A stretch of 64,000 nucleotides of DNA from Thainema sp. GTDB lineage: Bacteria > Cyanobacteriota > Cyanobacteriia > Phormidesmidales > Phormidesmidaceae. This document shows, piece by piece, positions 5,650-40,000 of the stretch; position 1 is the first letter of the stretch, and the number at the start of each line of letters is the position of its first letter. The DNA is taken from positions 1-64,000 of the forward strand of contig JBQLZK010000013.1 of NCBI GenBank assembly GCA_052168235.1, given 5' to 3'. The notes under the pieces were generated by a model. It did not search any database and was not told the DNA's origin. It worked only from the letters and a program-made list of their open reading frames with translations. A program made the position numbers and the translations under genes.

Positions 5650-5844
5650 CAACGTTGCTGAATAGCATATATATCCGGCCCAATGTTGCGAATGACTGGC
5701 CCAGAGAACGGCCCAAAAATTGGCCCAAATAATTGGTTAGTGAGATCGCACTATCCAACCTACAGCGAATTTATAAGCAGGCATTTCGCAAAAAATTAAT
5801 TTGAGGATTCGATAACCGGATTTCGTGTGAGTAGACTAATACAT

Positions 5845-7803: not shown

Positions 7804-8089
7804 TGTGAGGAACTTTGCGGTTTGGCTGTGACCAAGCTGTACCTATATACTGCCCAGACTGACTACGAATCCATCATGATGAACCGGATTGATTCCCGGA
7901 TTGACATCATAGTACGGATGAAAGGTCGATCTCTGTCCATAATCGCTGATTGGGTTGAATGCGATCGCAAACTGCCCCTGTATGATACCGAAGGAACTCC
8001 CAAACAAACAGTCTCAAACTCAATCTATCGGAACGACAGCATAGTTTTTATCAGTAAACTGCGCTTCAAACTACCTAGACATGAGAACT

Positions 8090-9208: not shown

Positions 9209-9618
9209 ACCGTTTACTGTGGCATTTTAAACGTCAGCGGAGCCAAAAGCTGTAGAAGGCAGAATTATTAAAAACTACGAGTCACTAGACCAATAGTTAG
9301 ACAACCTATACAAACGGCTCCAAAGAAGGATTTCAAGTTATTCTTTATTGCTTGATGCTTACCTAGCCTAGCCTGAAATCAAGCCAAAAAACGGCAGTCA
9401 AAGTGTTTCTCGCATTGAGAAATGTAAACTACGGACAATAACAACGATGACATTGGAATCCCAATCGGATGTGTAGGATACTACACTCAAGAATGATGCT
9501 AAACGAAGTGGATCAATAGTAGTAAACGGATTGATGTAATAATTTTGCGCTGCTAGTTTATCCACTTTTAGCGATGAGTTAGCTCATCTTTCCGTATTTA
9601 AATCGAAGGTTTAGCCAC

Positions 9619-10206
9619 ATGCCGAACTGGAAACTTTTTAAGCGTTATCATCGCCCGGATGACTTGAAGCATTGGCTGGTCAGCACATACCAAGCCATCA
9701 GTTCAGCATCAGTAGATGATCTGTGGCAAACCGTAATTAATTTAGCCGATTTATCCTGGCATCCGCTGATTACGCAAACCAATGTGCCCAATGGCTTAAC
9801 CGCCAAGCCGGGACTGATTTTTCGGGCCGTCACCTGCATTTTTCCGATTCCGATTCGCCTATTTGTTGAGCGCGTTTCACCCCATGAACTGTTGAGCATT
9901 CGCTTAGTTGCCTTTCCGGGCATTGAGGAACGTGTGACTTACCGAATTGAATCAACCGTTTGCGGCACCCGAATTTCCTATTCCGTGGCGCTACGCGGCT
10001 GGTTGTCCCCTCTGGCTTGGTCGTTGATTCGGCCCTACGCGGCTCAAGTTGCGGCTAATTTGGCTCAAGCGGCTGAACAGTCGGCACGCGGTGTCTTGCC
10101 GCCACCCAAACCCTCACAGCGCTGGTGCCAAGACCTGTTCGGCTTGATCGTTCTCTTGCCCAGTGTGGGATTGCTGTGGTGCGTGGTTGGTCAGTGCAGC
10201 ACTTAA
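9619..10206 (+). CDS. SRPBCC / polyketide cyclase-like protein
   Basis: Resembles conserved cyanobacterial START-fold proteins (LWQ.V.NLADLSWHP). Confidence 0.7.
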   Translation: MPNWKLFKRYHRPDDLKHWLVSTYQAISSASVDDLWQTVINLADLSWHPLITQTNVPNGLTAKPGLIFRAVTCIFPIPIRLFVERVSPHELLSIRLVAFPGIEERVTYRIESTVCGTRISYSVALRGWLSPLAWSLIRPYAAQVAANLAQAAEQSARGVLPPPKPSQRWCQDLFGLIVLLPSVGLLWCVVGQCST

Positions 10207-11856: not shown

Positions 11857-12155
11857 CTAGCGCTGAACTGCGATCGCAGCTTGATCGTGATCGTTTTCAC
11901 GAGCGACCCGCAGCTAGGGGACAAGTTAAGGTAGCAGCGCTAAAATGAGCCTTGTTTACATTACTTTACTTCTATCTTGAGATCCTTGGGATTGAGATCC
12001 ATCAAAAGGTGGTAGATCGGAATCATTAGGATGAGTTATGTCCTGTTCGCCGTACCACCCTGCTGCAACGTTGACGACTTAACAAGCTAGACTGCTTGCC
12101 AAATAAGCGATTCAGCGTTCTCTATGCACCAGGCAGTCGGACTAGCACTGTCAAT

Positions 12156-15540: not shown

Positions 15541-15850
15541 GGCATACGCTGTATCGTGGATGTGAAACCTGGTTGTAGCCTCACCAGTCATCGGTATAGA
15601 CCGAACTCTCGGCTCGGGTCATCGCCTGGATGTACGGACTCAGGGTCGTCTCGTCTGTGCGCTCAATGACTCGTAAGCGGACGTGCCCCGACATCCGTCC
15701 CATTGTGCCGATAATCGGCGGTCGGTCATTCTCATAGGTGCCGTGCCCCCGACGCTTGTTGGCTCGTCGTCTTGGCGGGTCATCTGGCTCCAGATGCAGC
15801 TTTCCTTTTCCCCCCCGCATTCTGAAACATCTCATCGGTTTCAGTCCATG
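15538..15850 (-). pseudogene. IS1595-family (ISXO2-like DDE) transposase fragment
   Basis: ETDEMFQNAG-(frameshift)-KG...RRRANKRRGHGT...VYTDDW*GYNQV; frameshift and in-frame stop. Confidence 0.8.
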
Positions 15851-15975
15851 TAGGGTGTGTCACGGCGAAGCCTAACGTATCATTTCACGAAATTCGAACC
15901 ACATAAGCTGCGATCGCACTTTTAATCCCTTTTGTGCTGAACTGGGCATCCTAAACTCACACCTATTTACTGGGT

Positions 15976-17241
15976 ATGGATATGAGATTATTCAGTAAGC
16001 TCATGAAGTGGTTTCAAATCGGATTGATCATTTTGTTATCAATCTTCGTTTTGAATACTGATGTGGCCTATGCTCGTGGGGGTTGTTTTAGTGGTGATAC
16101 GCAAATTCTTACTGTAAATGGCTACAAGTCCATTGAGCAGTTAAATCAGACAGATCATATTCTGGGATTTGATTTTTCAAATCATCAAATTAAGGAAGAA
16201 GAAATCGGCGAGATTCAGATTTTCAACTCTCCTGACTATTATCTTATCAATGACAGAATTAAAGTCACTGGCACACATCCCTTTTACGTTCAAAAGAACG
16301 AAAAGATAGAGCTTACTGAAGTACAAAATTTAAGCATAGGCGATCATCTGCTTGGCGAAAGCAACACGCGGATATCCATCTCTGAAATTGAACATATTCA
16401 GCAGCCTATTACGGTCTATAATCTTCTGTCTGTTAAACCCGACCATAACTTCTATGCAGATGGTGTTCTAGTTCACAACAAAGGAGGTGGCGGCGGTGGT
16501 AGTGGCGGTGGCGGACATGGACATGTAGCAGGTGGTGCAGATTATGAGCCTGTACCTCTAAATGCAAAAACAATTCCTAGCTTGATAAAGATATTTGTAG
16601 TCTTTATACCTTTAATTTTACCCTTTGGCTTTTTACAAGAAATCTACAATTTTATTCGGTTTCGAGACAGCCATTTTACAGAAGATGAAGACCTAATTGA
16701 GTTTGCGAGGCAAGTCAATATCCTATTTAGGAACCGTTACTCAGTTCGTTATTTTCAGGATGATCAGTATTGGATCATGATTCCGATTGCATCAGAGCTA
16801 GATGAAGAAGAATATCAGGACTGTATTAGCAAATCTGAATTGATTGAGAAAGTTCATAATTTGTTTATCCAATATCAAAATGATTGGACAAATAAAAACT
16901 TTGAGGCCATGACTAAATATATTGCTCAGCCTTTCTATCAAGAGCAATGCGATACTTTTACAAAAAGCTTTGGCAATGATTTTGATATAGTCTATAAACC
17001 AAATGTGCTTGATGTTGCTCCATTAGAATATCAGCAAGAAAATGATAAAGCGATTTTTCAGATTCAAATCAATGCTGAAATGATTAACTTCGATCTTTCT
17101 GATGAAGGTTATGTATTGAATGGCGAACCTTATTCCCGTTCTTGCACAGAATTTTGGACAGTCGGAGTAGATTCTGAGAAGAATTTAGAGTTAATCTATA
17201 TCACCCAAGTTGATGCGATCGCATTTTTCGAGAAAGTTTGA
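15976..17241 (+). CDS. Signal peptide + Hint (intein-like) domain + Gly-rich linker + TM helix + Tim44-like domain
   Basis: AYA cleavage site; Hint from CFSGDT (nt 16084) through TGTHPF to HNFYADGVLVHN (nt 16479); C-terminal Q.DW...EFW pattern resembles Tim44/NTF2-like domains. Confidence 0.8.
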   Translation: MDMRLFSKLMKWFQIGLIILLSIFVLNTDVAYARGGCFSGDTQILTVNGYKSIEQLNQTDHILGFDFSNHQIKEEEIGEIQIFNSPDYYLINDRIKVTGTHPFYVQKNEKIELTEVQNLSIGDHLLGESNTRISISEIEHIQQPITVYNLLSVKPDHNFYADGVLVHNKGGGGGGSGGGGHGHVAGGADYEPVPLNAKTIPSLIKIFVVFIPLILPFGFLQEIYNFIRFRDSHFTEDEDLIEFARQVNILFRNRYSVRYFQDDQYWIMIPIASELDEEEYQDCISKSELIEKVHNLFIQYQNDWTNKNFEAMTKYIAQPFYQEQCDTFTKSFGNDFDIVYKPNVLDVAPLEYQQENDKAIFQIQINAEMINFDLSDEGYVLNGEPYSRSCTEFWTVGVDSEKNLELIYITQVDAIAFFEKV

Positions 17242-17282
17242 GACAAGACAAAATAGGCTATTATTTGTCTAGCCTGTGAAAT

Positions 17283-17939
17283 TTGCGATCGCAACTTATG
17301 AATGGTGTTGCTTGGAACGAAATAGCAATATATGAAGTTGTTGAAACCTCAGTTTGCATTGATAATATCGTAATCGTCCCATGCTTTTATGAGCTATTTC
17401 CTTGCCCAGCAAAATATCAAGCTATCTTAGATTTTTCTTTAGAGCGCTACATGCTCCAAGAGCATTTATCCTTTGCGGATTTTTGCCCAGCATTTTATAA
17501 GTTTATTCAGCCCAGCCTAAGATTTGAATCTGAGAATTGGCAAGATGCAATTTGGGTTCGATCTAAGATTATATCTGTATATAATTTTTATCCACCACAG
17601 GCATACAGCATACGTCACAGCCTTTTGAATATTCCTTTCGTGGCGGTTTTTCTTGATGAATCATCAAGCATCGCGGCTCTACATCCATTTGCCTGTGTTG
17701 AGGACGAACTCAAAGCAGGACTTGGATTCTATCAAGTTACTACACCAGAAGAATGCTCGATTATTTCAGCTATTTTCTGGAAGTCATTATTGGCAGAACC
17801 AAAGCTAGCTGATTTTATTGATCGTGTTGTAGGGTGGGCTTACGATTATGAATCTCCAGTTATGGGTAGCGATTTTGTGACTGGCTATTGGAAAGATGAA
17901 TTCCATTTAGTTTTATTAGATTCAGCAATGTACTACTAG
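17283..17939 (+). CDS. Hypothetical protein (AT-rich)
   Basis: 218-aa ORF with no recognised motif; start may be the ATG at 17298. Confidence 0.6.
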   Translation: MRSQLMNGVAWNEIAIYEVVETSVCIDNIVIVPCFYELFPCPAKYQAILDFSLERYMLQEHLSFADFCPAFYKFIQPSLRFESENWQDAIWVRSKIISVYNFYPPQAYSIRHSLLNIPFVAVFLDESSSIAALHPFACVEDELKAGLGFYQVTTPEECSIISAIFWKSLLAEPKLADFIDRVVGWAYDYESPVMGSDFVTGYWKDEFHLVLLDSAMYY

Positions 17940-18085
17940 ATCTAAAGCTTTAATAAATGGAATAATGTATGCGAAGCATAATTCTTAGAAATGCGATCGC
18001 ACATTAATCTCTAATCGTTTTCCTACTTATGCAATCTTGACAAAACCTTCAATCCAATCCGATCTAAATTTGCAATGTCTGTTCT

Positions 18086-19165
18086 CTAAGTTTTTCTCGA
18101 ATTATTAGAAATCGCAGGTTGTAATAAACGACTTTCTAAGCGAGGTGTAATTTGGCGATCATATAGTTGCTGAATTTTTTGGCATATCACAAACATAACT
18201 GGCAAAGTGGTAACTATCATTACGCTCGAAAATATAAACAGATTGTCACCAGGTATCGCCTTCTCGATGATTTTGCTTGCCACAGATAAAACAGGTCGGT
18301 GAAACAGATAAATGCAATAAGAGGCGTAAGCGACTTTTTCAAAAAGGAAAAAACTTAATCCTTCTTCAGGAAGATAACGTAGAGCATAATAAGAGAAAGT
18401 TACAAAGCAGATCATCCAGATATTTACTCTTAAAAGGTTGAGTAAAGAAGCATCAGGGTTTCGAATGGATGCGTATCCTGTCAAATTCATCAATAAGGTG
18501 ATGAACAAGAGAATCAGAAAAAAGATAATTGAGAATGACTTAGGTGATTTATCTAAGATTTTGCTGGCACCACAATACATGCCATACCAGAAAACTCCAT
18601 AGTAGAGCAGTAGACGAAAATCAGTTGCCTGCCAAATTGCATTTAAGGTAAAAATTAGAATAGGAAAGCCAGTAATGATGCAAAGTTTTACATTTTGGCT
18701 CAGAGCTGATTTCCAAACCATAAAAATTGAATAGTAGGCTACAATCAATCCGATAAACCAAAGCGTTCGTATCGGTCGAAAATTCGGTGATTCAACTAGC
18801 AACTGCAATCCAAATAAATGCACAAGAATCGAAGTTGGATTGAAGATTTCATACAAAATAATGAATGCGGCAAAAGCAACTAAGTAAAGAGGAAAAATCC
18901 GAATCCAGCGCTTAAGAATAAACTTTTTAGCCTCGGCTAAGTCAAAAGAGTGATTCTTTCTTGAGTTAAGCAAGTACCCTGAAGTAAACACAAAAAGGCT
19001 TAAGCCAATATAACGATTAAATACATTGAGAAGAGACAGATCGAGAGGTACTCCGAAATTATTTAGGTCGTAGTAGTTAAACGTATAGCCTGGTAGATGA
19101 TGAAACAGTATCACCAAGATCGCTAATGCTCTCATCCAATCAAGTACCACTAATCTTTTTTTCAT
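18086..19165 (-). CDS. Acyltransferase 3 (OafA-like) membrane O-acyltransferase
   Basis: LDWMRALAILVILFHH, LFVFTSGY, KRWIRIFP, LWFI, SYCIYLFH motifs. Confidence 0.88.
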   Translation of the reverse strand: MKKRLVVLDWMRALAILVILFHHLPGYTFNYYDLNNFGVPLDLSLLNVFNRYIGLSLFVFTSGYLLNSRKNHSFDLAEAKKFILKRWIRIFPLYLVAFAAFIILYEIFNPTSILVHLFGLQLLVESPNFRPIRTLWFIGLIVAYYSIFMVWKSALSQNVKLCIITGFPILIFTLNAIWQATDFRLLLYYGVFWYGMYCGASKILDKSPKSFSIIFFLILLFITLLMNLTGYASIRNPDASLLNLLRVNIWMICFVTFSYYALRYLPEEGLSFFLFEKVAYASYCIYLFHRPVLSVASKIIEKAIPGDNLFIFSSVMIVTTLPVMFVICQKIQQLYDRQITPRLESRLLQPAISNNSRKT

Positions 19166-19636
19166 CTCTCTAATCCAATCTGATTACAAAAACTAAATTC
19201 ATAGTCGATAGACTTGCTTCTAAAATACAATCATTAAATACAACTATTTTATTCTGGTCAGATTATATTAAAAAGCACATAGAGAAACGTTTTACCTCTT
19301 TGGATCTGGCTCTTGATCTGAGCCTAGATTGCATGAAATTTGTTGCCATCAGCCCATCGTAATTTTAATGATTGCTTAATTTAGAAAAGAAGATACGGCT
19401 TAGTTGGCTAATAGATATAGATGGATTGGCTAATTTCAAGTAAAATGACAAGCCCATCGGCTTTACAGTCGCTTTTATTCATACCTTCTAGAGAAAAATT
19501 GGTTTTTGGAACACTCGCAAAATATTAAATAGGCAAGTCTTCTGACAAATGTCCGGTCAGATAATCAGGTGTTTGCCATAATTTTTGCAGAGATGCGATC
19601 GCACAACCGCACCACACTTTTCACAGGAGTCGGCCA

Positions 19637-21421
19637 TTGGTTCAGTCACCCCAGCCCCCAGCCAGTGCTTCACGCCCCATGCAGCGGGTACTTGGTAGCC
19701 TCCGCGTTTATCCCTGGTTGACCGTGGGCGCAATCGGCAGCGCCTTGCTCCTGGTGGCGGCCTATGCAGCGACGCCGCAGCTCTATCGCTGGGCCATCGA
19801 TCAGGGCATTACCGAGCGGAATCTGACAATCGTGCTCCAGAGTGGGATGGGATTAGTCATTGCTGCGATCGCACGGGGACTGTTTAACTTTGGTCAGAGC
19901 TTTTGCGCCGAAGCCATGTCTCAGGGCGTGGTGTATGACCTGCGCAATCGGATTTTCAGCAAAATCCAGAACCTCAGCTTCAGCTACCACGATCAGTCGC
20001 AGACCTCACAGCTCCTCACCCGCGTCACCAGCGACATTGAGCAAATTCGCACCTTTCTGAGTACGAATCTGATCCAGGTGATTAGCGGCGTCGTGACGCT
20101 AGTGACGATTGCCGTGATTTTGCTGCTGATGAACTGGCGGCTAGCCCTGATTAGCCTGCTGGTCGTACCCCTGGCGGGTTGGCTGATGGCTCGCTTTTTT
20201 AGTCAAAACAGCCAGCTTTTCTACCAGGTGCAGGAGCAGCTCAGCGACCTCAACGCCGTTCTGCAAGAAAATCTGGTGGGGGTGCGGGTGGTCAAAGCCT
20301 TCGTACGGGAACGGGTGGAAACAGAGCGCTACACCCACCAGAATCAGAGCCTAGTTGCCGCCAATATGAAGACGATTGTGGCGATTCGCAACACGTTTCC
20401 GTTTATCTTCCTGGCCAGCAATCTGGTGATTGTGGCGGTGATTGGCTACGGCGGCGCGGCGGTGATTGGCGATCGCCTGTCGGTGGGGGAGCTAGTGGCG
20501 TTCAATGCTTATCTGCTGCTGATTTTGCAGCCGATTCTGCTGATTGGTTTTGCCGCGCCAGCGATTGCCCAAGCTGCCGCTTCCGCCGGACGGGTTTATG
20601 AGGTAATTGATGCCGCAATTGAAATTAAAGACCGACCGCAGGCTGTGCCCTTCACCACCTGCGGCGGCAGAATCACGTTTGAAAACGTCTCCTTCCGCTA
20701 TCCCGGTGCGTCGGTGCCAGCGCTGACCAATATCTCGTTTGAAACCAAGCCCAACGAGCTGATCGCCATCCTGGGCATGACCGGATCGGGCAAAAGTACG
20801 ATTATTAACCTGATTCCCCGCTTCTACGATGTGACGGCGGGAGCCGTGCGGATCGACGGACGCGACGTGCGGGATTTTACCCTAGAAAGTTTGCGATCGC
20901 GGATTAGCACCGTGTTTCAGGAAAGCACTTTATTCTCCGGCACCATTTTCTCCAACATCACCTACGCCAAGGCCGACGCAACGATGGCGGAAGTGATTGA
21001 AGTGGCTAAAGCCGCTCAGATTCACGATTTTATTGCCAGTTTACCCGACGGCTATGACACGATTGTGGGCGAACGCGGTGTGGGACTCTCCGGTGGTCAA
21101 AAACAGCGAATTGCGATCGCGCGTACTCTACTCACCGACTACAACATTCTGATCCTGGACGACAGCACCTCCGCCGTTGATGCTCAAACTGCTGCTCAGA
21201 TTCAAGCCGCCCTCGATGACCTGATGCGCCGCCGCACCTGCACTTCCTTTGTTGTCGCCCAGCGGATTAGCACCGTCCGCACCGCCGACCGCATTCTGCT
21301 CATGGACAAAGGCCACCTAGTCGCCCAGGGCACCCACGAACAACTGATGGCCAGCAGCCCGCTCTACGGTGCCATTTTGGAATCGCAGGTTGGTTCGGCC
21401 ACCACGCCGCTTGAGATTTGA
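19637..21421 (+). CDS. ABC exporter, fused permease/ATPase (heterodimer subunit with degenerate Walker B)
   Basis: GMTGSGKS, LSGGQKQR, ILDDSTS, AQR switch. Confidence 0.92.
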   Translation: MVQSPQPPASASRPMQRVLGSLRVYPWLTVGAIGSALLLVAAYAATPQLYRWAIDQGITERNLTIVLQSGMGLVIAAIARGLFNFGQSFCAEAMSQGVVYDLRNRIFSKIQNLSFSYHDQSQTSQLLTRVTSDIEQIRTFLSTNLIQVISGVVTLVTIAVILLLMNWRLALISLLVVPLAGWLMARFFSQNSQLFYQVQEQLSDLNAVLQENLVGVRVVKAFVRERVETERYTHQNQSLVAANMKTIVAIRNTFPFIFLASNLVIVAVIGYGGAAVIGDRLSVGELVAFNAYLLLILQPILLIGFAAPAIAQAAASAGRVYEVIDAAIEIKDRPQAVPFTTCGGRITFENVSFRYPGASVPALTNISFETKPNELIAILGMTGSGKSTIINLIPRFYDVTAGAVRIDGRDVRDFTLESLRSRISTVFQESTLFSGTIFSNITYAKADATMAEVIEVAKAAQIHDFIASLPDGYDTIVGERGVGLSGGQKQRIAIARTLLTDYNILILDDSTSAVDAQTAAQIQAALDDLMRRRTCTSFVVAQRISTVRTADRILLMDKGHLVAQGTHEQLMASSPLYGAILESQVGSATTPLEI

Positions 21422-22207: not shown

Positions 22208-23977
22208 ATGACTTCTGCCCCCGCTGCCGCTACGCAATCCCGAAAACCTAAATCCTCAACCACTGGGCGTTTCTTTCGTTACTTTGCGCCCTATCGGCAA
22301 GAACTTCCTTTAGCGATTCTCCTAGTTGCCATTGGCGCGACCACTCAAGCAATTGGGCCGCTGCTGATCGGCTGGTCAATCGACAATTTGATTCTGACCG
22401 GGAATTTAAGAGGGCTGTTGTGGATGCTAGTCATTCTGACAGCAATTTATTTCCTGGGAGTTGGGGCGATTCGGGGACAAATCTTGCGGATGGGATCGAT
22501 TGTGCAGCGGCTGCTGGGCCAGTTGCGGCAGGACATTTTTGATAAGGTTCAAAGCTTGCCCGTCAGCTTTTTTGACCGCAGTGAAGCGGGCGACCTGATG
22601 AGCCGTCTGCTCAACGATGTCAGTACGGTGAATCAAGCCTTTGGCCTGACGATTCCCCAGGTGCTGGGCCAAACCTTCAGCCTGGTGGGGATTATCATCG
22701 CCATGCTGTCGATTAATTTGCAACTGGGACTGCTGAGCAATCTGGTTGTACCGCTGATGATTTTTACTACGGGATTTTTCTCCCGCTGGGCTAGGAGTCG
22801 ATTTCGCGTCACTCGTCAGACAATTGGCGATCTCTCGGCCAAGCTGGAGGAAGATATTGGTAGCGTGCGCGAGGCTCAGGCATTTAACCGCACTCAGCTT
22901 AATATTGAAGAGTTTGATAGCCTCAATGCTGCCAATCGGCGCGCAAATGTGCAGGCCGTGGCGGTGACAGCCGCGTTTTTGCCTTCTATTGATTTTCTCA
23001 ACACCCTGGCTACGGCTGGCGTGATGGCCTACGGTGGCTATCTGGCGGTGACGGGAGCGATGACGGTGGGTACCGTGACCGCGTTTTTGCTCTACGTGCA
23101 GCAGTTTTTCCGCCCGATTCAGATCCTCAGCCAGTTTTATACTCAAGCCCAATCGGCTCTGGCCGGACTGGATCGGATTTTTATGCTGCTGGATGAACCC
23201 GTCACGTTACAGGATGCCCCCAATGCCAATGAGATACCGTCAATTCGGGGCGAGGTGCGGTTTGAGCAGGTGGAGTTTGGCTACACGCCCAATCAGCGAG
23301 TGCTGAAGGGGATCAATCTCTGTGCTCAACCGGGGCAGATGATCGCGCTAGTGGGGCCAACCGGAGCGGGCAAAAGCACCATCATTAACTTGATTATGCG
23401 GTTCTACGATGTGACAGATGGAGCCGTGAAGATTGACGGCATTGATATTCGCACCGTCACCCAGGCTAGCCTGCGTCGCCAGATTGGCATTGTGCTTCAG
23501 GATAATCTGCTGTTTACGGGCACCGTGGCCGAAAATATTGCTTTTGGTGCTCCCCATGCCAGTCAAGCCGAGATTGAAGCAGCGGCTCAGGCGGCCAATG
23601 TGCATGAGTTTATTACCTCGCTGGCTCAGGGGTACAATACCCGCTTGGGCGAACGGGGCGCACCCCTCAGTCAAGGCCAGCGGCAGTTGGTGAGCATTGC
23701 ACGGGCCGTGCTGGTCAACCCCCGAATTCTGGTACTAGACGAGGCAACCAGCAGCATCGATACTCGTACTGAAGGGCTGGTGCAGGATGCGATCGCAACT
23801 CTTCTAAAGGGTCGCACCAGCTTCGTGATTGCCCACCGTCTCAGCACCGTCACCGCAGCCGATCAAGTGCTGGTGATTCAACAGGGACAAATTGTGGAGC
23901 AGGGCACCCATGCCGAACTAATGGAGCAACAGGGAATCTACGCCAATCTTTACAGTCTGCAACTGGGAGCCAGTTAA
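22208..23977 (+). CDS. ABC exporter, fused permease/ATPase (heterodimer partner subunit)
   Basis: GPTGAGKS, LSQGQRQ, LDEATS, AHR; likely ATG at 22208. Confidence 0.92.
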   Translation: MTSAPAAATQSRKPKSSTTGRFFRYFAPYRQELPLAILLVAIGATTQAIGPLLIGWSIDNLILTGNLRGLLWMLVILTAIYFLGVGAIRGQILRMGSIVQRLLGQLRQDIFDKVQSLPVSFFDRSEAGDLMSRLLNDVSTVNQAFGLTIPQVLGQTFSLVGIIIAMLSINLQLGLLSNLVVPLMIFTTGFFSRWARSRFRVTRQTIGDLSAKLEEDIGSVREAQAFNRTQLNIEEFDSLNAANRRANVQAVAVTAAFLPSIDFLNTLATAGVMAYGGYLAVTGAMTVGTVTAFLLYVQQFFRPIQILSQFYTQAQSALAGLDRIFMLLDEPVTLQDAPNANEIPSIRGEVRFEQVEFGYTPNQRVLKGINLCAQPGQMIALVGPTGAGKSTIINLIMRFYDVTDGAVKIDGIDIRTVTQASLRRQIGIVLQDNLLFTGTVAENIAFGAPHASQAEIEAAAQAANVHEFITSLAQGYNTRLGERGAPLSQGQRQLVSIARAVLVNPRILVLDEATSSIDTRTEGLVQDAIATLLKGRTSFVIAHRLSTVTAADQVLVIQQGQIVEQGTHAELMEQQGIYANLYSLQLGAS

Positions 23978-24070
23978 ACCATGACAATAGTCTTCAACTG
24001 GTAATGATTTTGTGCTGTGTGGGCTTCACATACGCAACGCAAAATTATTACTTATATACCACCATCAACT

Positions 24071-24559
24071 ATGACTAACGATTTCGCGTTCATCCTCAAA
24101 CTGCTTTCGCTGCTGGGCTGTGGGCTGATGGCAGGCGTCTTTTTTGCCTTTTCCACCTTTGTGATGCAGGCGCTGGCGCAACTGAAGCCACCTCAAGGTA
24201 TTGCCGCTATGCAGGCAATCAATATCACCGTGATTAACCCCTGGTTCATAACGGTGTTTATGGGTACAGCGGCGGTTTGTCTGTTGCTTGCGATCGCAAC
24301 CCTGCTCAACTGGCAGCAACCCACTGCGATCTATGTGCTCTTGGGCAGTCTGCTCTATCTGATGGGCACCTTTGGCGTCACAATTGTGGGCAATGTCCCC
24401 CTGAATAATGCACTGGCAGACGTAGAACCCACTAGCGCAGAAGGGGCAGCTTTGTGGGCACAGTATCTAACCCGCTGGACAATCTGGAACCACGTCCGGA
24501 CAGTCGCAGCAGTACTGGCCACTACCGCTTTTGCCTTTGCCATCCAATCGCCGAGCTGA
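24071..24559 (+). CDS. DUF1772 / anthrone oxygenase family membrane protein
   Basis: GLMAGVFFAFS..VM, AMQAIN, NVPLNNAL, W..WNHVRT motifs. Confidence 0.85.
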   Translation: MTNDFAFILKLLSLLGCGLMAGVFFAFSTFVMQALAQLKPPQGIAAMQAINITVINPWFITVFMGTAAVCLLLAIATLLNWQQPTAIYVLLGSLLYLMGTFGVTIVGNVPLNNALADVEPTSAEGAALWAQYLTRWTIWNHVRTVAAVLATTAFAFAIQSPS

Positions 24560-24561
24560 AC

Positions 24562-24612
24562 GCGATCGCACTTTCCAACCCTCTCAGCATGAAAGGTGCG
24601 ATCGCACTTCTT
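24562..24612. repeat. HIP1-pair boundary repeat, copy 1
   Basis: GCGATCGC-ACTTTCCAACCCTCTCAGCATGAAAGGT-GCGATCGC-ACTTCTT. Confidence 0.8.
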
Positions 24613-24740
24613 GATGAGGGCTGAACTTTGAATCTGTGTGGCATGATTGGCGATATAGATGTAAACGCAGCAACATGGCTACTTATCAAGAGATCTGTAG
24701 CGATGGAATGACGACTTTACTCAAAGGAGGCGTGGTGAAA

Positions 24741-24974
24741 ATGACAACTAATTGGCAAGAGACATTAGTTGAAAAGCAGGTAACATACGCTTTAAACCTG
24801 AACGGCAAAATGATTCTGATTGAAAATGTGCCTGCTCGTGTCAATGAAGAAACGGGTGAGCAATTTTTCTCTCCCGCAACTGTAGAACGTTTGCAACAGA
24901 CAATTTTAGATAGCGAAGAGCCTGACCATTTTGTTCAGGTTCCTGTATACAACTATTCAGACAGTGCTGCATAG
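24741..24974 (+). CDS. YgiT-type (MqsA N-terminal-like) antitoxin-family protein lacking the Zn-binding cysteines
   Basis: IENVPARV...GE.FF...V.RL pattern; AAGGAGG upstream. Confidence 0.75.
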   Translation: MTTNWQETLVEKQVTYALNLNGKMILIENVPARVNEETGEQFFSPATVERLQQTILDSEEPDHFVQVPVYNYSDSAA

Positions 24975-24983
24975 CATTTAGCG

Positions 24984-25010
24984 GAAGTGCGATCGCACTT
25001 CTTAACCCTC
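24984..25010. repeat. HIP1 boundary repeat, copy 2 (single extended palindrome)
   Basis: Perfect 18-bp palindrome GAAGTGCGATCGCACTTC followed by TTAACCCTC. Confidence 0.75.
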
Positions 25011-25023
25011 ATTATTAACAAAA

Positions 25024-25335
25024 GTGAGATACAAAATTTTCTTTTCACCTGAAGCCGCAGCCGACATTGCTGTGCTGAGGGCAAGTGATCGAGCCAAGGT
25101 GTTGGATGGCATCGAGACATTCTTAAGACATGAGCTGGAAAAGGTGAGTAAGAGCCGGATTAAGCGTCTGCGAGAGATGCAAAAACCTCAATATCGATTG
25201 CGGCTTGATGATATACGCGCGTTTTATGACGTGAGTTACGCTGAAGATGGAACTGGGACTGTGGAAGTTCTCCGTATTCGGGAGAAAACTGAGGCGATGA
25301 AGTGGTTAGCTGAGTTTGGGGAAAGAGGGGAATGA
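25024..25335 (+). CDS. Type II TA toxin, RelE/ParE family
   Basis: F...A..D, YRLRLDDIRAFY, VEVLRI motifs; overlaps the downstream antitoxin. Confidence 0.8.
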   Translation: MRYKIFFSPEAAADIAVLRASDRAKVLDGIETFLRHELEKVSKSRIKRLREMQKPQYRLRLDDIRAFYDVSYAEDGTGTVEVLRIREKTEAMKWLAEFGERGE

Positions 25336-25589
25336 AGCAAGTATCATTTGATGAAGTGAAGGGCAATCTGTCGGGATATCTACAACTCGCTGAGAAAGAA
25401 AGCGTTGTGATCATGCGCGATGGACAACCTGTTGGCATTCTCATTGGGTTTGAAAATGCTGAGGACTGGTGGGAAGAACTGTTGCTGCGAGATCCACGTT
25501 TTGAGGCGGAGATTGCTCAAGCACGCCAAAGTTTGAAAGAGGGCAAAGGGATTAGTTTAGAAGATTTGAAAGCGAAGTACGCAGACTAA
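25332..25589 (+). CDS. Type II TA antitoxin, Phd/YefM family
   Basis: EVKGNLSGYL..A..E.VVI.RDGQPVGILI; ATGA overlap with the toxin. Confidence 0.82.
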   Translation: MKQVSFDEVKGNLSGYLQLAEKESVVIMRDGQPVGILIGFENAEDWWEELLLRDPRFEAEIAQARQSLKEGKGISLEDLKAKYAD

Positions 25590-25591
25590 TT

Positions 25592-25632
25592 GCGATCGCA
25601 CTTTCCAACTTCTCATCATGAGAGATGCGATA
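25592..25632. repeat. HIP1-pair boundary repeat, copy 3
   Basis: GCGATCGC-ACTTTCCAACTTCTCATCATGAGAGAT-GCGATA (second HIP1 degenerate). Confidence 0.75.
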
Positions 25633-25728
25633 TATCCACGGTGCGTTAGTATCAAATAGCACTTTCAACTTGTTCTTGCGTGGACTTTGAGATTATCGGC
25701 GACATCTCAGATATTGTTTAGATTGACT

Positions 25729-25965
25729 ATGAAAACAGAGCAGTCCCAACCTAATCAGTTTGCTGTTTGCCTAAATAATGAAGGCTATCAAGCATCATTG
25801 GAAGTCGGTAAGATCTATCGAGTCATTCATGATGAGGAATCCAAGGCGAATGGATTAATCCGGGTCATTGATGAGAGCGGCGAGGATTATGCTTTTTCTG
25901 CCAATCGGTTCTATCCCATCGAAGTACCAAAGCCTGTAGAAGAGGTATTGATGTCAGCATTTTAG
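25729..25965 (+). CDS. Small conserved hypothetical protein (putative TA-associated)
   Basis: FAVCLNNEGY.ASLE.GKIY...RVIDESGEDY pattern; ATG at 25729. Confidence 0.7.
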   Translation: MKTEQSQPNQFAVCLNNEGYQASLEVGKIYRVIHDEESKANGLIRVIDESGEDYAFSANRFYPIEVPKPVEEVLMSAF

Positions 25966-25967
25966 GC

Positions 25968-26014
25968 GCGATCTCAATTTCCAACCCCTTCATCAAAAGT
26001 GCGATCGCACTTTT
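25968..26014. repeat. HIP1-pair boundary repeat, copy 4
   Basis: GCGATCTC-AATTTCCAACCCCTTCATCAAAAGT-GCGATCGC-ACTTTT; 20-bp palindrome at 25995-26014. Confidence 0.78.
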
Positions 26015-26021
26015 ACTCAAA

Positions 26022-26321
26022 ATGCTGAATTTTATCCAAAAAATAGTCCACTGGCTTGATGGCACCTACATAACTGATGAAACCATCTTCCTACGACAAT
26101 CATCAGGATGGATTCAGCTATCTCGTTCAGAAGTCTATTCAGTGAAGTTTAAGTCTGTGAGCCGCGTTGTTGTCCGTTTGAGCAATGGTCAACGGCTTGT
26201 ATTAAACCTCTTTGGCCTTAATAATCCGGCTTATGATCGAGTTGTAGAAGCTTTTCGAAAAGATCTGCAGTTGGTGAAGAGCGGACGTATCAGTACTTAT
26301 GAGCGAGATTCTAGCAAGTAG
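26022..26321 (+). CDS. Hypothetical protein
   Basis: 99-aa ORF starting 8 nt after the repeat. Confidence 0.55.
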   Translation: MLNFIQKIVHWLDGTYITDETIFLRQSSGWIQLSRSEVYSVKFKSVSRVVVRLSNGQRLVLNLFGLNNPAYDRVVEAFRKDLQLVKSGRISTYERDSSK

Positions 26322-26392
26322 TTGTTATTATTGACTCCATAGCTCAGAAAATTATTAGATACAAACTAAGGCAAATTCAATCTTCAGGCGCT

Positions 26393-26878
26393 ATGAAAGA
26401 GGACTTTCAACGGATTACTCAACACGGGAATTGGGGATTATTTGCAACACAGCTATTACAAGATTCCAAGCCTTCGGAAGAGATAAGCCAAGAATTTAGT
26501 ACTCATTGGATAGTGGCGGGGCATAAGATTCGAGAACAACTTGGAGATGATCGCTACTTAGTCCGTTTGTTACGACATATGCTTATGCCCTATAAGGGGG
26601 GTGCAGTAACGCTCTATCGAGGCGAAAATCTGGCAAGATGGCAAGAACGTTCTATAGGATTTGCTTGGACTACTGACATAAAAGTTGCACGTATGTTCGG
26701 AAGCGGTCTTAACGCAATTGATTCAGGAGGCGTTTTACTTGAGGGAACTTTTTCATCAGAGGCAATTATTAGTGAACCTAATGCTCACAGTAAGTGGCTA
26801 GGAGAAGAGCAGTTTACTGTCGATCCTTTTTACGAAACTATCATTCGAGAAATTGAATTTTTTCCGCCTGCTTTTTAA
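26393..26878 (+). CDS. Hypothetical protein with ADP-ribosyltransferase-like motifs
   Basis: LYRG ... FAWTT...VA..F ... GEEQF spacing resembles the R-S-E ART fold. Confidence 0.6.
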   Translation: MKEDFQRITQHGNWGLFATQLLQDSKPSEEISQEFSTHWIVAGHKIREQLGDDRYLVRLLRHMLMPYKGGAVTLYRGENLARWQERSIGFAWTTDIKVARMFGSGLNAIDSGGVLLEGTFSSEAIISEPNAHSKWLGEEQFTVDPFYETIIREIEFFPPAF

Positions 26879-27133
26879 GCATAACTATTCGCGCTTGTAT
26901 TATTGATGGTATGAGATTTGGCCTTTGATTTTAAGATCTCTTATGACAGCGTTGCACTAATGATTAACCTGCTTCACATGCTGCATATCAAATTCCATCA
27001 AGTTTTTGCAGTGTTATTTACCGATATCTATTAACAATTGATGGGAAAATCGCCGCAGTCGCGCTACTCTGGATAGAACTCTTGTTCTCTGAGTCAACCC
27101 ATACGTTAAAGCGCTGAACCGAGCAGAGACCCT

Positions 27134-28831
27134 ATGACAGCTTCAGATTCTTCTCGGCCTAAACAGATTGTTGGCACCGTCAAAGGGCCAGGTGAAAACG
27201 GCAACCAGTATGTGTTCATCACCGCCGACAACCGCTATGTCAAGATTGGCGAGTTTGTCTACTACGAGGTTGAATCCGTTTCCCTAGAGCTGCGGACGGA
27301 GACGCTGCAAATTCTGGGCAAAATTTCTGGGCGCAAGTTGATTGATCACCTGCCCGATCGCATTTTTGCCGATGCCGAGATTAGTCCCGAAACCATTGCA
27401 GCGCTGGTGGGTTTCGCCTATCCCAATCCCGAAATTTATGAAGTCACCGTCGATGTAATTGGCTACTTCCACCCAGCGCTGGGCTTCATGAACCCGCGTA
27501 AAACCCCCGATCCAGGGTATAAAGTCTTTCTCGCGCCCGACCCGATGCTGCGGCAGATCCTCAACAAGCGGCAGCCAAATGAAGTCGGTGCAGCACACGT
27601 TGGCGCACTGCTGCTGCGGGAAGGGGCAGCGGTGCCGATTGCGCTGGATGTGAAGGAGCTGGTCAGTACCCACATGGCGATTCTGGCCGGGACGGGATCG
27701 GGAAAGTCATACACGGCGGGCGTTTTAGTAGAGGAGCTAATGCTGCCCCACAATCGGGCGGCGGTGCTGATTTTTGATCCGCACGGGGAATATGGCACGC
27801 TGACCGATATGCGCGGGCATCCGGCGTTTACGGCGGACGACGGCTATGCGCCGGAGGTGAAGGTGCTGACGCCGGACGATATTTGCATTCGGTTTTCGTC
27901 GCTGGACTACTATGACGTGCTGACGCTGCTGCCGGAGATGAGTGAGCGGCAGCAGTCGATTTTGAATAAAGCGTTTACGATTCTGAATCGGCACCGCAAG
28001 GGCAACTATCGCTGGGACGTGCAGGATCTCATTGCCGCTGTGTTTGAGGCCGATCGCACTCAGGACGACGAGGGCAACGAGAAAACCGGATCATCAGCTC
28101 CGGCGATTGAGTGGAAGCTGGAGAAATTAGCGCGATCGCAATATTTTCACTCGATGAATCACCTACCGCCCAAGGATCTGTTTGAACCGGGGCAGGTGAC
28201 GGTGCTGCAAATGAACGAAATCAGTCAGGAAGAGCAGCAGGTGATCTGTGCGGCGGTGCTGCGGCAGGCATATCAGGCGCGGATGGATACGCACAAGGAG
28301 AAAATCGAAGCGGGCGACGAGAATTATTTGCCCTATCCTGTGTTCATTCTGCTGGAAGAAGCCCATCGGTTTGCGCCAGCGCGGGAGCCGTCTCGCTGTA
28401 AGGCTGTTTTGCGGACGATCTTAAGTGAAGGGCGGAAATTTGGTTTAGGCGTTGGTTTGATTACCCAGCGACCAGGCAAACTGGATTCCGATGTGCTGTC
28501 CCAGTGTATGAGTCAGTTCCTGATGCGAATCGTTAATCCGGTGGATCAGGAAAGCCTCAAGTACGGGGTTGAAGCCGCAGGGCGGGATTTGCTGAAGGAG
28601 TTACCCGCACTCACCAAAGGCCAGGTGATTATTTCCGGAGCCTGTGTGAATACGCCTGTCCTTTGCAAGGTGCGGCAGCGGCTCACGGTTCACGGTGGTG
28701 AAACCCTGAATGCGCCGGAAATGTGGCAATCTCACTTCCAGCAGCATCGGCAGAAAACGCGCAAGTTGGAGAAAGCCGCGATCGCAAGTCGCAAACGCCC
28801 CGACACCCTCGACGGTATTAGCATTGATTAA
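27134..28831 (+). CDS. HerA-like (DUF87/FtsK-HerA) ATPase with N-terminal HAS-barrel-like region
   Basis: AGTGSGKS, IFDPHGEY, LLEEAHRF, EGRKFG, ITQRP. Confidence 0.88.
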   Translation: MTASDSSRPKQIVGTVKGPGENGNQYVFITADNRYVKIGEFVYYEVESVSLELRTETLQILGKISGRKLIDHLPDRIFADAEISPETIAALVGFAYPNPEIYEVTVDVIGYFHPALGFMNPRKTPDPGYKVFLAPDPMLRQILNKRQPNEVGAAHVGALLLREGAAVPIALDVKELVSTHMAILAGTGSGKSYTAGVLVEELMLPHNRAAVLIFDPHGEYGTLTDMRGHPAFTADDGYAPEVKVLTPDDICIRFSSLDYYDVLTLLPEMSERQQSILNKAFTILNRHRKGNYRWDVQDLIAAVFEADRTQDDEGNEKTGSSAPAIEWKLEKLARSQYFHSMNHLPPKDLFEPGQVTVLQMNEISQEEQQVICAAVLRQAYQARMDTHKEKIEAGDENYLPYPVFILLEEAHRFAPAREPSRCKAVLRTILSEGRKFGLGVGLITQRPGKLDSDVLSQCMSQFLMRIVNPVDQESLKYGVEAAGRDLLKELPALTKGQVIISGACVNTPVLCKVRQRLTVHGGETLNAPEMWQSHFQQHRQKTRKLEKAAIASRKRPDTLDGISID

Positions 28832-28834
28832 TAT

Positions 28835-29533
28835 TTAGAGATCAGCCGGATCAATACCGAGTTCGCGTAATTTTGCAAAAGCGCGATCGCGTTCTTGTTG
28901 AGCTTGGTCACGTTCCTGCTGAGCTTGAGTGCGTTCTTGTTGCGCTTTATTCAGCGCCTCAAAGATCTCATCGGGATCTTTAAACCGTTCACCATTGGGG
29001 TGAAAAATGGCTAAGCCATCGTCAAACAGCTCGAAGCGAATGCCCAGAGTAGGCGAAGTCCAAGGAAAATTGATCGGTGCGATAGATACAAAATCTTCGT
29101 CGGTTGCTGATCGTACTAACCCAAAAAAGTCATGAGATTCTGGATCATAGAAGAACATTTCTAAGACACCATACTCCCGATAGAAGGCTTGTTTCTTGAC
29201 CATTTCCCTAGCGCTGTTGCTGGGCGACAGGATCTCAAAGACAACTTGGGGCGCAATATTATTTTCTTCCCACTGTTTATAGCTGCCGCGATCGCCATCG
29301 GGGCGACCCAAAACGACCATTACATCAGGAGCCTGGGCTGGAACGGGAGGAGCTTCAACTTGAATGGGATACCACAATAAATCTCCGGCGACAAACGCCG
29401 TTTGGTCTTTCAGCAACCGCCTTAGATTGGCAACCAAACGAACAATCCAACGATATTGCAGCGTGTTGTCCGCCATCGGCTGACCGTCAGAATCAGGGTA
29501 TAAAATTTGGGATTCAATGGGTACTTGAACCAT
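28835..29533 (-). CDS. Uma2-family (DUF820) endonuclease-like protein
   Basis: YPDSDGQPMADNT, APDVMVV, VFEILSPSN, coiled-coil tail ending LRELGIDP. Confidence 0.92.
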   Translation of the reverse strand: MVQVPIESQILYPDSDGQPMADNTLQYRWIVRLVANLRRLLKDQTAFVAGDLLWYPIQVEAPPVPAQAPDVMVVLGRPDGDRGSYKQWEENNIAPQVVFEILSPSNSAREMVKKQAFYREYGVLEMFFYDPESHDFFGLVRSATDEDFVSIAPINFPWTSPTLGIRFELFDDGLAIFHPNGERFKDPDEIFEALNKAQQERTQAQQERDQAQQERDRAFAKLRELGIDPADL

Positions 29534-37044: not shown

Positions 37045-40000
37045 ATGCATACTGCCTTTAAATCGAGTGTTTTATTACCTAGTCTGCTGCTTGGGTTAAG
37101 TCTGCCGTCACCGCTCTATGCTCAATCCATCATTGCAACTGATGGTGGTGGCACAAATGTGCAGCAGTTCGGTAGTGAATATCAAATTGACGGTGGTATT
37201 CGTAACGACGCGAATTTATTTCACAGCTTTGATCAGCTCAATTTGGATGCAGGTGAGACAGCCAACTTCCGATCGCAACCCAACATCCAAAATATTCTCG
37301 GTCGGATCAGTGGTGGCGACCCGTCGATAATTGACGGCCTGCTGCGGGTGAGTGGCGGCGAGGCCAATCTGTACTTGATGAATCCGGCGGGTATTCTGTT
37401 TGGTGAAAATGCTCGGTTAGACATCCCCGGCTCGTTTGCCGCAACGACAGCAACGGGTATTGGCTTTGGAGACGGCTGGTTCAATGCCGTTGGTGAAAAC
37501 GACTACAGCACCCTGGTGGGCTCCCCGACTGACTTTGCGTTTAGCACCGCGCAACCGGGCAGCATCGTCAATCAAGCCAACCTGAGCGTCAATCCCGGTG
37601 AGTCACTGAGCTTGATCGCGGGCAATGTGGTGAACGTGGGGCAGTTAGAGGCTCCGGCAGGACAAATTGCGATCGCATCTGTACAGGGCGGCGAGCGAGT
37701 GCGCATCAGTCAAGACGGCATGTTGCTGAGCCTAGAAGTTTCAGCCCTGGATGCTGGCTCAAGTGGAGGCTTGAACCCACTGCCGTTTCAGCCCTTGGAT
37801 TTACCGTCCCTGCTTACGGGAACTGGCACTCAGCTTGACCACGCAAATCAGATCACGGTTGATGCAGACGGCACGATTCGTTTAGGGCAGGGTGCAAGTC
37901 GCGATATTGCAGCCAATAATGCGGCAGGCATAGCGGTACTCAGCGGTACAACCAGCGTTGCCGGGACGACAGGGCAAGCGGGGGGACAAATCGCAGTTGA
38001 GGCTGACCGGGCAGCGTTTCCTGCTGGACTAATTGATATTTCGGGTGAACTAGGGGGTGGTCGCCTAGAGGTCTATGCCAATCAGTTTACGCTCGGTACA
38101 GCCATTAATGCGTTTGGTGGCAGCGGTAGCGATTCAGGTGGCTACGTACTGCTGGATCCAGACGTCGCAAACGTGGAGTTAGCTGACGTACCGTCAATTG
38201 TGACGGCTCTAGGTTCCGGTGCTGATGTTGTCATTGATGCCGCTTCCACGATTAATATCAACGCCCCCATCAACACCAGCGCTCAGGCAAGTACAGCGAC
38301 CCTGCAACTGACGGATGAAAATGCCGATAATAACCTGACCATTAACCTGAATCAGCCGATTACTCTTGGTGCTAATCAAACCCTGACGGGCGAAGGCACA
38401 ACGGTTAATGTCACCACTGGTCGAGTGCAGAACGGGATTGATGTTGCCGCTGAGGGAGCCACGGTTAATCTCGCGGCTGCGACTTATCAAGAGAGTCGTG
38501 AAATTCGGATTGCGCGATCGCTAACGCTCCAGGGTCAAGGAGCCGACCAAACGGTTCTATTTGGCAACAACACCCATCGTGTTCTGTTCGTTGATGGCTC
38601 CGGTGGTGATGTAAATGTCACTCTCAGCAATCTGGCTGTAACCCGAGGCGCAGCGGCTGAAGGAGCTGGCATTTATAACAATCAAGCCAACCTGACGATT
38701 CGCAATAGCCGAATCGAAAATAACAGAGCCACGGTCGGGACACCACTCATCCGACGCGGCGGCGGCATTTTCAATAACAACAGCACCAGCGGCAGTCTGC
38801 TGATTGAAGATAGCACGATTGCCAACAATGCAGTTCTAGGCGGCAACGGTACCGTTTCTGGTCAAGCAGGCTATGGCGGTGGATTATTCAATCAAGATGG
38901 TGATCTGACTATTCGCCGCAGTACGCTTAGCAACAACCAAGTAACTGGTGGCAACGGTGGAACGTTTGGTGGAGCTGGACATGGTGGTGCGCTCTATAAC
39001 GCCGCTAGTATGCAATCAAATGTCACCATTACAGACAGCACGTTCAGCGGCAATCAGGCGATCAGCGGCACTGGAACTAGCTCAACACTCGGTGGCTACG
39101 GTGGCGCAATTTACAATAATGACCGTCTCACTCTAGTCAACAGCACCGTCACCAACAACACAGCTAGCGACACAGGTGCCCTGGGTGGGCAGGGTGGTGG
39201 CCTTTACCTGGGGAATTTCGCTGAAACTGACATTGGCAACTCGATCATTGCTGGAAACGCTAGCAATACGTCTGGCGTTGATGTGCAGGGCGAGGTAACA
39301 GAAGACCTGGGCGCAAACCTGATCGGCAACGTAGATGGCAGTACCGGATTTACGACCAGCATATTACTTGGCAGCACGGCTAATCCGCTTGATCCGGGCC
39401 TGCAACCTTTAGGCAACTACGGTGGCCCCACCCAAACCCATCGGCCACGACCTGACAGTATTGCGCTGGATAGCGGCGCAGTTATCGCGGCTTCCAGTAC
39501 CGATCAGCGAGGCCAAGCTCGAATCGGTGGGGCAGGCATTGATATTGGAGCGGTCGAAACGAGCTACGACATTCTGGCAACGCTGGGCAATGGACAGTCA
39601 ACGGTCGTCAACACCAACTTTGGCACCAACCTACAGGTACAGCTCACTGAAGCAGGTCAGCCAGCCGCGATCGCAGGTATTCCGATTACCTTCATCCTGC
39701 CCGATGCAGAAGTCAGCGGCAACTTCAGTGGTAGCCGCACGGCCACGGTGAATACTGACGGTAGCGGAGTTGCGATCGCACCCACCTTAACCGCCAGCAT
39801 CCGCAGCGGAGAATTTATCACCACCGCCAGCTCTGGCAACTTTACCGACCAGCAGTTTACGCTGACAAACTTGGCGGATCAGCCAGCACAGATCACCATT
39901 CTGGGCGGTGATGGACAAGCCACAACCGTGAACACAGCCTTTGCCAATGCCCTCGCGATTCAGGTCACCGATCAGTTTGGCAATGCTGTACCCAATGCGG

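Follow-up and report, generated by a model that had tools for sequence, protein, structure and literature searches.

HIP1-bounded repeat units at four consecutive gene boundaries of a small-module array in Thainema sp.: a testable lead on HIP1 function

In integrons, the attC sites are 55–141 nt long and carry inverse core sites, RYYYAAC ... GTTRRRY. The pdif (Xer) modules of Acinetobacter plasmids are small, often encode toxin-antitoxin pairs, and are bounded by short palindrome-like sites on which a host recombinase acts in trans; the pdif sites themselves are 28-bp XerC/XerD sites of alternating orientation. In Escherichia coli, repetitive extragenic palindromic (REP) sequences located near stop codons affect translation. 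We report here the analysis of a 64,000-nt stretch of Thainema sp. DNA (contig JBQLZK010000013.1, positions 1 to 64,000, called the window below), in which a repeat unit built on the cyanobacterial octamer HIP1 (highly iterated palindrome 1) lies at four consecutive gene boundaries of an array of small genes, and we compare this array with the systems described previously.

HIP1 ranks with the most strongly over-represented octamers known from cyanobacteria, and its function is still debated some thirty years on; it has been proposed to act in recombination, in methylation-linked roles or in DNA uptake (PMC5861425, PMC13756078). HIP1 has been linked to site-specific recombination and to the precise insertion of SDR5, small dispersed repeat 5 (PMC4390886), PMC9239245 cites recombination of plasmids at HIP1, and HIP1 in donor DNA was reported to raise transformation efficiency (PMC13756078). 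SDR5 is a 21-nt element inserted between bases 3 and 4 of HIP1 and is described from Nostocaceae only (PMC4390886, PMC5861425, PMC13756078). In the literature consulted, no description of arrays of HIP1 units between gene modules was found.

Four related units of 41–49 nt occupy four consecutive gene boundaries of the + strand, between positions 24560 and 26015 of the window. Each starts with GCGATCGC (HIP1), followed by an interior of 25–29 nt, which has ACTT or AATT at its start and A(A/G)(G/A)T at its end, and then by a second HIP1 or a decayed version of it, so that the HIP1-to-HIP1 period is 33–37 nt. The four units, and two half units located elsewhere in the window, are listed below.

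24562..24609, + strand: unit c1; perfect HIP1, 28 nt, perfect HIP1, ACTT
24985..25033, + strand: unit c2; 16-bp perfect palindrome round HIP1 (24985–25000), then a 29-nt interior
25592..25634, + strand: unit c3; perfect HIP1, 27 nt, second HIP1 decayed
25968..26012, + strand: unit c4; first HIP1 one base off, 25-nt interior, perfect 16-bp palindrome round the second HIP1
15910..15933, + strand: half unit; HIP1 with ~16 nt of interior, located at the left border of a second island of low guanine-plus-cytosine (GC) content
5742..5765, + strand: decayed half unit; the stop of a caspase-domain gene lies 93 nt upstream and the gene for RNase P RNA 85 nt downstream

An earlier sequence-only reading of this DNA had proposed that one and the same element recurs at the four boundaries, 2–10 nt past a stop codon, and a 20-mer search, an nhmmer profile and an alignment all confirmed this. 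Three units begin 2 nt past a stop (24559 to 24562, 25589 to 25592 and 25965 to 25968); for c2, the palindrome at 24985 starts 10 nt past the stop at 24974, with 14 nt to HIP1 proper. That reading had also taken c2 for a single palindrome, which did not hold: when c1–c4 were re-aligned over slightly wider windows all four were full-length (mean column identity 72%), c2 aligned across the entire unit, and a ParE gene that starts with GTG has its first codons where the second HIP1 of c2 would be. As the ParE N-terminus MRY(E/K)I is conserved among relatives, the final bases of c2 are coding. The borders are sharp: similarity between copies opens at the first HIP1 and is gone about 4 nt past the second, and the flanks are unrelated. 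On the downstream side, the next start codon follows c2 directly (0 nt) and c4 after 10 nt. The same 16-mer palindrome is present in c2 (at 24985) and in c4 (at 25997), and three of the eight HIP1 positions in c1–c4 are degenerate. The first HIP1 is followed by ACTTTCC in c1 and c3 and by AATTTCC in c4, versus the variant ACTTCTT, which together with HIP1 forms a 15-nt direct repeat (24598–24612 and 24989–25003) bracketing the first module of the array.

HIP1 as such is abundant in the window (88 copies, 1.43 expected). A search for the first 20 nt of the unit, allowing up to three mismatches, gave six matches (24562, 24989, 25592, 25968, 5742 and 15910) versus none in 100 shuffles. With an nhmmer profile of c1–c4, the only full-length matches in the 64 kb were c1–c4 themselves (E values of 3e-17, 8e-15, 3e-13 and 7e-6) and the remaining matches were single HIP1 sites, no full copy being found in the other ~45 intergenic regions of the window. 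The profile scan, applied here to the window, thus placed all full copies in the array and left the half units at 5742 and 15910 outside it. The presence of all full copies inside 1.5 kb, at consecutive boundaries, is unlike a freely dispersed repeat; 5 of the 13 window HIP1 sites outside accepted open reading frames (ORFs) fall within this same 1.5 kb. Proximity to stop codons is not a general property of HIP1. Among 871 ORFs of at least 60 aa in 58 HIP1-rich loci used as background, 38 had a HIP1-like site (up to one mismatch) starting 0–20 nt past the stop, and HIP1 counts per 10-nt bin past stops were flat (7, 8, 6, 11, ...). These flat counts led us to reject a general preference of HIP1 for the 3' side of stop codons.

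The genes of the array and of its flanks are the following.

24071..24559, + strand: DUF1772/anthrone-oxygenase-family membrane protein (Pfam PF08592, E = 6.7e-19)
24741..24974, + strand: module 1, 77-aa protein (TIGR03831, YgiT-type finger, E = 0.0011, 19.2 bits, cut-off 20.2)
25024..25335, + strand: module 2a, ParE/RelE-family toxin, 103 aa (PF05016, 25.7 bits, cut-off 23)
25332..25589, + strand: module 2b, candidate Phd/YefM-type antitoxin, 85 aa (PF02604, 29.2 bits, cut-off 29.8, marginal; weak NCBIfam matches)
25729..25965, + strand: module 3, 78-aa conserved cyanobacterial protein (GC 0.42, HIP1-free)
26022–26321, + strand: 99-aa gene (GC 0.42; no Pfam, NCBIfam or PADLOC match)
26393–26878, + strand: 161-aa gene (GC 0.42; no Pfam, NCBIfam or PADLOC match)
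27134..28831, + strand: HerA/DUF87 ATPase, right flank (PF01935, E = 4.9e-51; PADLOC HerA models down to E = 1.6e-46)

The DUF1772 gene, which precedes the array, is of native composition (GC 0.525, one internal HIP1). Its longest ORF opens at 24017, and its stop codon is ancestral, as the C-terminus is equal in length to that of its nearest protein relative, which is 85% identical (the next ones are 75% or less). The HerA/DUF87 gene on the other side is also of native composition (GC 0.55, two HIP1). Between them the cargo has a foreign composition: the ORFs from 24636 to 26878 have a GC of 0.42–0.48, versus 0.53–0.55 in the flanking genes, and contain no HIP1 in 2.2 kb, in agreement with the sequence-only reading. 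The HerA/DUF87 ATPase matches anti-phage HerA models without a recognised partner, and a Uma2-family endonuclease gene lies downstream of it on the opposite strand (region 26393–29533).

The gene of module 1 (GC 0.42, HIP1-free) had been read as a YgiT-type antitoxin; the corresponding match exists but falls below its cut-off, and the 77-aa protein had no Pfam and no PADLOC match. The two genes of module 2 (25024–25589), with the toxin gene first and a 4-nt overlap, are adjacent small genes of both families of a type II toxin-antitoxin pair and are predicted to form such a pair, the antitoxin match being marginal. The ParE toxin has 2431 relatives, which carry the source names RelE/ParE and belong to many filamentous cyanobacteria; the best is 96% identical and the others 81% or less. 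The 78-aa protein of module 3, described previously as a hypothetical protein, is no orphan and belongs to a widespread, highly conserved cyanobacterial family: its 877 relatives, in distant cyanobacterial orders, are 75–95% identical and of near-constant length, and it is conserved far more strongly than the neighbouring proteins. It had no significant match in Pfam, NCBIfam or PADLOC. The 99-aa and 161-aa proteins fall into unnamed look-alike clusters; the nearest named look-alike of the 161-aa protein is a DRAT-like cluster at 0.88, a lead only. The closest database relatives of the cargo proteins are thus 96% and 95% identical, compared with 85% for the native neighbour DUF1772. Searches of a plasmid collection gave no match to the array region (distant mode), to 24 kb (near mode) or to the ParE protein, and a single one, 52% identical and located on a Thiodictyon plasmid, to the 78-aa protein.

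Similar layouts were sought in a genome collection, with the first 18 nt of the unit as the query. The scan returned 78 loci with one match each, from 78 different genomes, none of them the source genome or closely related to it; required to match exactly, this 18-mer is a stringent probe, which two of the four window copies would fail. It was never found more than once per representative genome. In 67 of these loci the match fell within a long open frame, and the other 11 were inspected. Only two of the 78 loci, L019 (Scytonema hofmanni UTEX 2349) and L041 (Brasilonema), had a unit-like paired-HIP1 setting, and these were also the only ones with HIP1-bearing tandem repeats (Tandem Repeats Finder, window and 78 loci). 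Compared with the 78 loci by tblastn, 11 window proteins gave no cargo or DUF1772 relatives.

In L019 the layout is similar to that of the window: four co-oriented modules lie between tandem arrays of a 27/28-nt HIP1-bearing unit, and in the array units HIP1 has an ACTT flank as in the window. The modules, all HIP1-free, are as follows.

L019 module 1: two genes without family
L019 module 2: a split DUF1016/YhcG nuclease
L019 module 3: a gene of no assigned function and a PIN toxin
L019 module 4: DUF4365 and a HicA-like gene

One L019 array stops exactly at HIP1, 7 nt past the stop of the PIN gene, and the following array picks up at the unit interior (by eye). At 7660–8060, 9950–10075 and 11990–12130, the arrays of this locus contain insertions of 21–26 nt between bases 3 and 4 of HIP1, in agreement with the published signature of SDR5 (PMC4390886); one L019 array includes a run of N. 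In L041 a 34-nt HIP1-phased array extends from about 20 nt past a stop. The repeats of the window, L019 and L041 appear to belong to the same class, homology not being proven, and the window unit is most likely a lineage-specific representative of a broader class of intergenic HIP1-phased repeats found in filamentous cyanobacteria. In another of the loci (L060, Leptolyngbya sp. AN10, 8700–9400), HIP1 pairs 22–25 nt apart are found between small family-less genes; these genes are HIP1-rich themselves, unlike the window cargo.

The array hints that the HIP1 palindrome marks joints of gene addition. The interpretation that we tentatively favour, as a serious possibility that stops short of being probable, is that small modules entered a HIP1-phased tract behind the DUF1772 gene by splicing, or were exchanged by way of it, and that their joints lie at HIP1. 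A short repeat tract would first have lain behind the native gene. Three small foreign modules (the 77-aa gene, the ParE-Phd pair and the 78-aa gene) would then have entered this tract by recombination between a unit beside the incoming DNA and a resident unit, with joints at, or a few bases from, the HIP1 palindromes, and each such event would leave a unit on either side of every module. As no dedicated integrase was seen, the likely agent would be host homologous recombination or a HIP1-directed activity in trans. We infer both that recombination at HIP1 is the source of the joints and that the tract preceded the modules; the architecture is partly supported and the mechanism is unproven. 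In favour of this interpretation are the confinement of full units to the array, their sharp HIP1 borders, the 15-nt repeat around module 1, the foreign composition and closer database relatives of the cargo, the similar L019 layout, the rarity of HIP1-bearing tandem arrays and the published links of HIP1 to recombination, SDR5 insertion and transformation efficiency.

Several observations weigh against this interpretation. First, no integrase or recombinase domain was detected among 55 ORFs scanned across the 64 kb, as the sequence-only reading had stated for the integrase. Second, the ACTTCTT variant that brackets module 1 exceeds the family consensus by just 3 bases. Third, c1 trails a native gene by 2 nt, the same distance as units behind cargo genes, and an arrangement of gene plus 3' hairpin therefore fits as well as a joint; one of the half units also adjoins a core gene, rnpB. 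Fourth, low-GC ORFs are HIP1-poor across the whole window, which makes the absence of HIP1 from the cargo weak evidence when taken alone. Fifth, no unit was found by profile search of 26020–27133 behind the genes at 26022–26878, which, if they form a module, would be one with no right-hand joint. Finally, the L019 unit is on the strand opposite its genes, unlike in the window, its likeness to the window unit consists mostly of the two HIP1 sites and the ACTT flank, and L019, like L041, was retrieved via the search word, so that it is not an unbiased replicate.

The folding of the units bears on a different explanation, in which they are a lineage-specific REP-like family of hairpins made of two HIP1 copies, which would act on RNA (on the stability of the upstream message, on attenuation of read-through or in coupling to terminating ribosomes) and would have spread locally after the genes were in place; the units would then be silent on how the genes arrived. 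We consider this possible and on the whole doubtful. In its favour, c1 has a 14-bp stem, interrupted by a single bulged G, and folds strongly as RNA (-24.6 kcal/mol, z-score -3.7) and as DNA (z -5.2 on the + strand, -4.7 on the - strand), all four copies are on the coding strand at most 14 nt from a stop, and the half units occur elsewhere in the window, one of them beside rnpB. Sporadic single HIP1-pair hairpins past stops were also observed in three other loci (3 nt past the stop in L037, 5 nt past it in L060, and with a perfect stem of 13 bp in L018), and in the 58 background loci HIP1 pairs 12–50 nt apart were about 2.4 times denser in intergenic DNA (16 in 155 kb) than in coding DNA (34 in 777 kb). 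In addition, HIP1 was among the top motifs flanking stable transcripts of PCC 7002 (PMC7406221).

The hairpin is, however, not maintained among the copies. The RNA fold of c2 had a z-score of -3.2, whereas c3 (z -0.8 as RNA, -2.0 as DNA) and c4 (RNA z -1.6) fold weakly, and a strong fold is limited to c1. None of the 14 stem pairs shows compensatory changes and 7 of the 14 vary by breaking only (four copies, low power); the proportion of paired cells across c1–c4, 76.8%, equals the shuffled mean (four sequences, low power). No terminator-like site (GC-rich stem followed by a T run) was present in 23500–27500, and Rfam searches at permissive and gathering thresholds gave nothing at the units, the sole match in that interval being a chance PhrS (E = 0.99). 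As c2 and c4 are 0 and 10 nt from the start codons of the ParE and 99-aa genes, these genes must be read through them, and the two units are no efficient terminators if the downstream genes are expressed. A REP-like family also sits poorly with the absence of full copies from the other intergenic regions of the window and with the lack of a Y1/RAYT-type transposase (REP-associated tyrosine transposase), none of which was found in the window. The hairpin may also serve as an intercistronic RNA stem-loop, though such a function does not account for the likeness of the copies.

Other readings of the palindromes were rejected. An antitoxin operator was considered for the 16-bp palindromes upstream of the ParE and 99-aa genes and was rejected as the main reading, since one palindrome serves unrelated genes. 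A CRISPR-like array was rejected because the 'spacers' are genes of 330–560 nt.

It could also be that the low-GC block from 24.6 to 27.1 kb was acquired whole, or is an old operon-like cluster, and that local duplication or gene conversion between neighbouring HIP1 sites gave rise to its repeats, the units having no role in recombination or in RNA function. The GC drop covers the entire block, including the two unit-less genes, the copies resemble decaying relics in view of their degenerate HIP1 positions, and other low-GC parts of the window (31–34 kb) have no units. Nevertheless, gene conversion leaves unexplained the 2-nt stop offset of three units and the end of the similarity at HIP1. 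Furthermore, the first and best-kept copy stands behind a native gene, outside the low-GC block, and a similar layout is present in L019. We regard this explanation as distinctly unlikely.

The sequence-only reading had compared the locus with integron cassette arrays. In its strongest form, this comparison would make the paired-HIP1 unit the site of a dedicated recombinase encoded elsewhere, which would capture circular cassettes in one orientation. Part of the analogy stood: homologous HIP1-bounded units with sharp borders lie 3' of co-oriented, low-GC, HIP1-free modules, the short distances from c2 and c4 to the next start are as in promoterless cassettes, the otherwise perfect stem of c1 has a bulged base, and L019 has a similar layout. 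The rest did not. No IntI was found in the 64 kb, and the check for canonical attC sites that had been recommended gave no RYYYAAC...GTTRRRY pair in 24400–27200 on either strand (regular-expression scan; 13 chance matches window-wide). The array contains just three modules and its last genes have no unit, a half unit lies by rnpB, and in L019 the unit points the opposite way with respect to the genes. The rarity of the paired setting among the 78 loci, and of the 18-mer within any one representative genome, also argues against such a system. Dedicated capture of this type is in our opinion very unlikely.

A second low-GC island of the window (15581–19640, GC 0.35–0.39) contains a Pretoxin-HINT (PT-HINT) polymorphic-toxin fragment (15976–17241), a family-less 218-aa gene and an acyltransferase gene, and adjoins an 84-aa fragment of an IS1595-type transposase. 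All five of its HIP1 sites (15910, 17215, 17285, 17993 and 19595) are at gene or island boundaries. At 17215–17292, the whole spacer between the PT-HINT fragment and the next gene is enclosed by a pair of HIP1 sites that are separated by 70 nt and have partly complementary flanks. A 1193-aa protein encoded at 37045–40626 has a two-partner-secretion domain; a relationship with the orphan PT-HINT toxin fragment at 15976 is possible. At 5850–6241 on the + strand, near the decayed half unit, is the gene for RNase P RNA (bacterial class A, 252 bits), and the ORFs listed there are spurious.

The locus is a small, concrete and testable case: HIP1 units stand precisely between modules of foreign appearance, and a distant cyanobacterium shows a similar layout. 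Breakpoints of module gain and loss within the units would link HIP1 directly to the acquisition of genes; otherwise the units would be a lineage-specific REP-like family of HIP1-pair hairpins, ordinary yet useful for annotation. More generally, HIP1-bounded short repeats might be crossover sites of module exchange in cyanobacteria: small modules (toxin-antitoxin, defence and others) with a unit would be taken up, circularised or transferred, and spliced into resident HIP1-phased tracts, to give cassette-like arrays without an integron integrase. We hold this generalisation to be unlikely; were it true, the hyper-abundant HIP1 palindrome would gain a concrete role in gene gain. In conclusion, the array is a testable lead on the function of HIP1, not a demonstrated cassette system.

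Compared with integrons, the window array shares the co-oriented small genes, including a predicted toxin-antitoxin pair, a hairpin-forming repeat near the stop behind each module, and a short distance to the next start at two joints. It differs by the lack of IntI and of attC core pairs, by units of 41–49 nt, which are shorter than attC, and by a site that is also present behind a native gene and missing behind the last two genes. The array falls outside the definition of an integron.

The units resemble the REP sequences and bacterial interspersed mosaic elements (BIMEs) of enterobacteria, and the related REPIN-RAYT system (REPINs, REP doublets forming hairpins), in being short imperfect palindromes able to form hairpins, strictly extragenic, located at 3' ends or between co-oriented genes and sometimes clustered. 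The differences are that the window unit is made of two cyanobacterial HIP1 octamers, that its four full copies are all in one 1.5-kb tract with two half copies elsewhere, and that stems without compensatory change are found in a window where no RAYT-type transposase was seen.

SDR5, as described in the papers cited above, is like the present unit a very small repeat tied to HIP1, and the L019 arrays carry insertions within HIP1 of 21–26 nt. In the window units HIP1 is whole on either side, with no SDR5-type insertion in any of them, unlike L019, and the period is 33–37 nt; moreover, the native gene has its nearest relatives in a range not specific to Nostocaceae. The HIP1-associated recombination described for a plasmid of Synechococcus PCC 7002 and for inversion ends in S. 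elongatus consists of single inter-replicon events or inversions (PMC9239245, PMC4390886), in contrast to the serial HIP1-bounded units between modules of the window. The likeness between these cases and the window array is the presence of HIP1 at rearrangement joints, which in the window are the putative joints of the modules.

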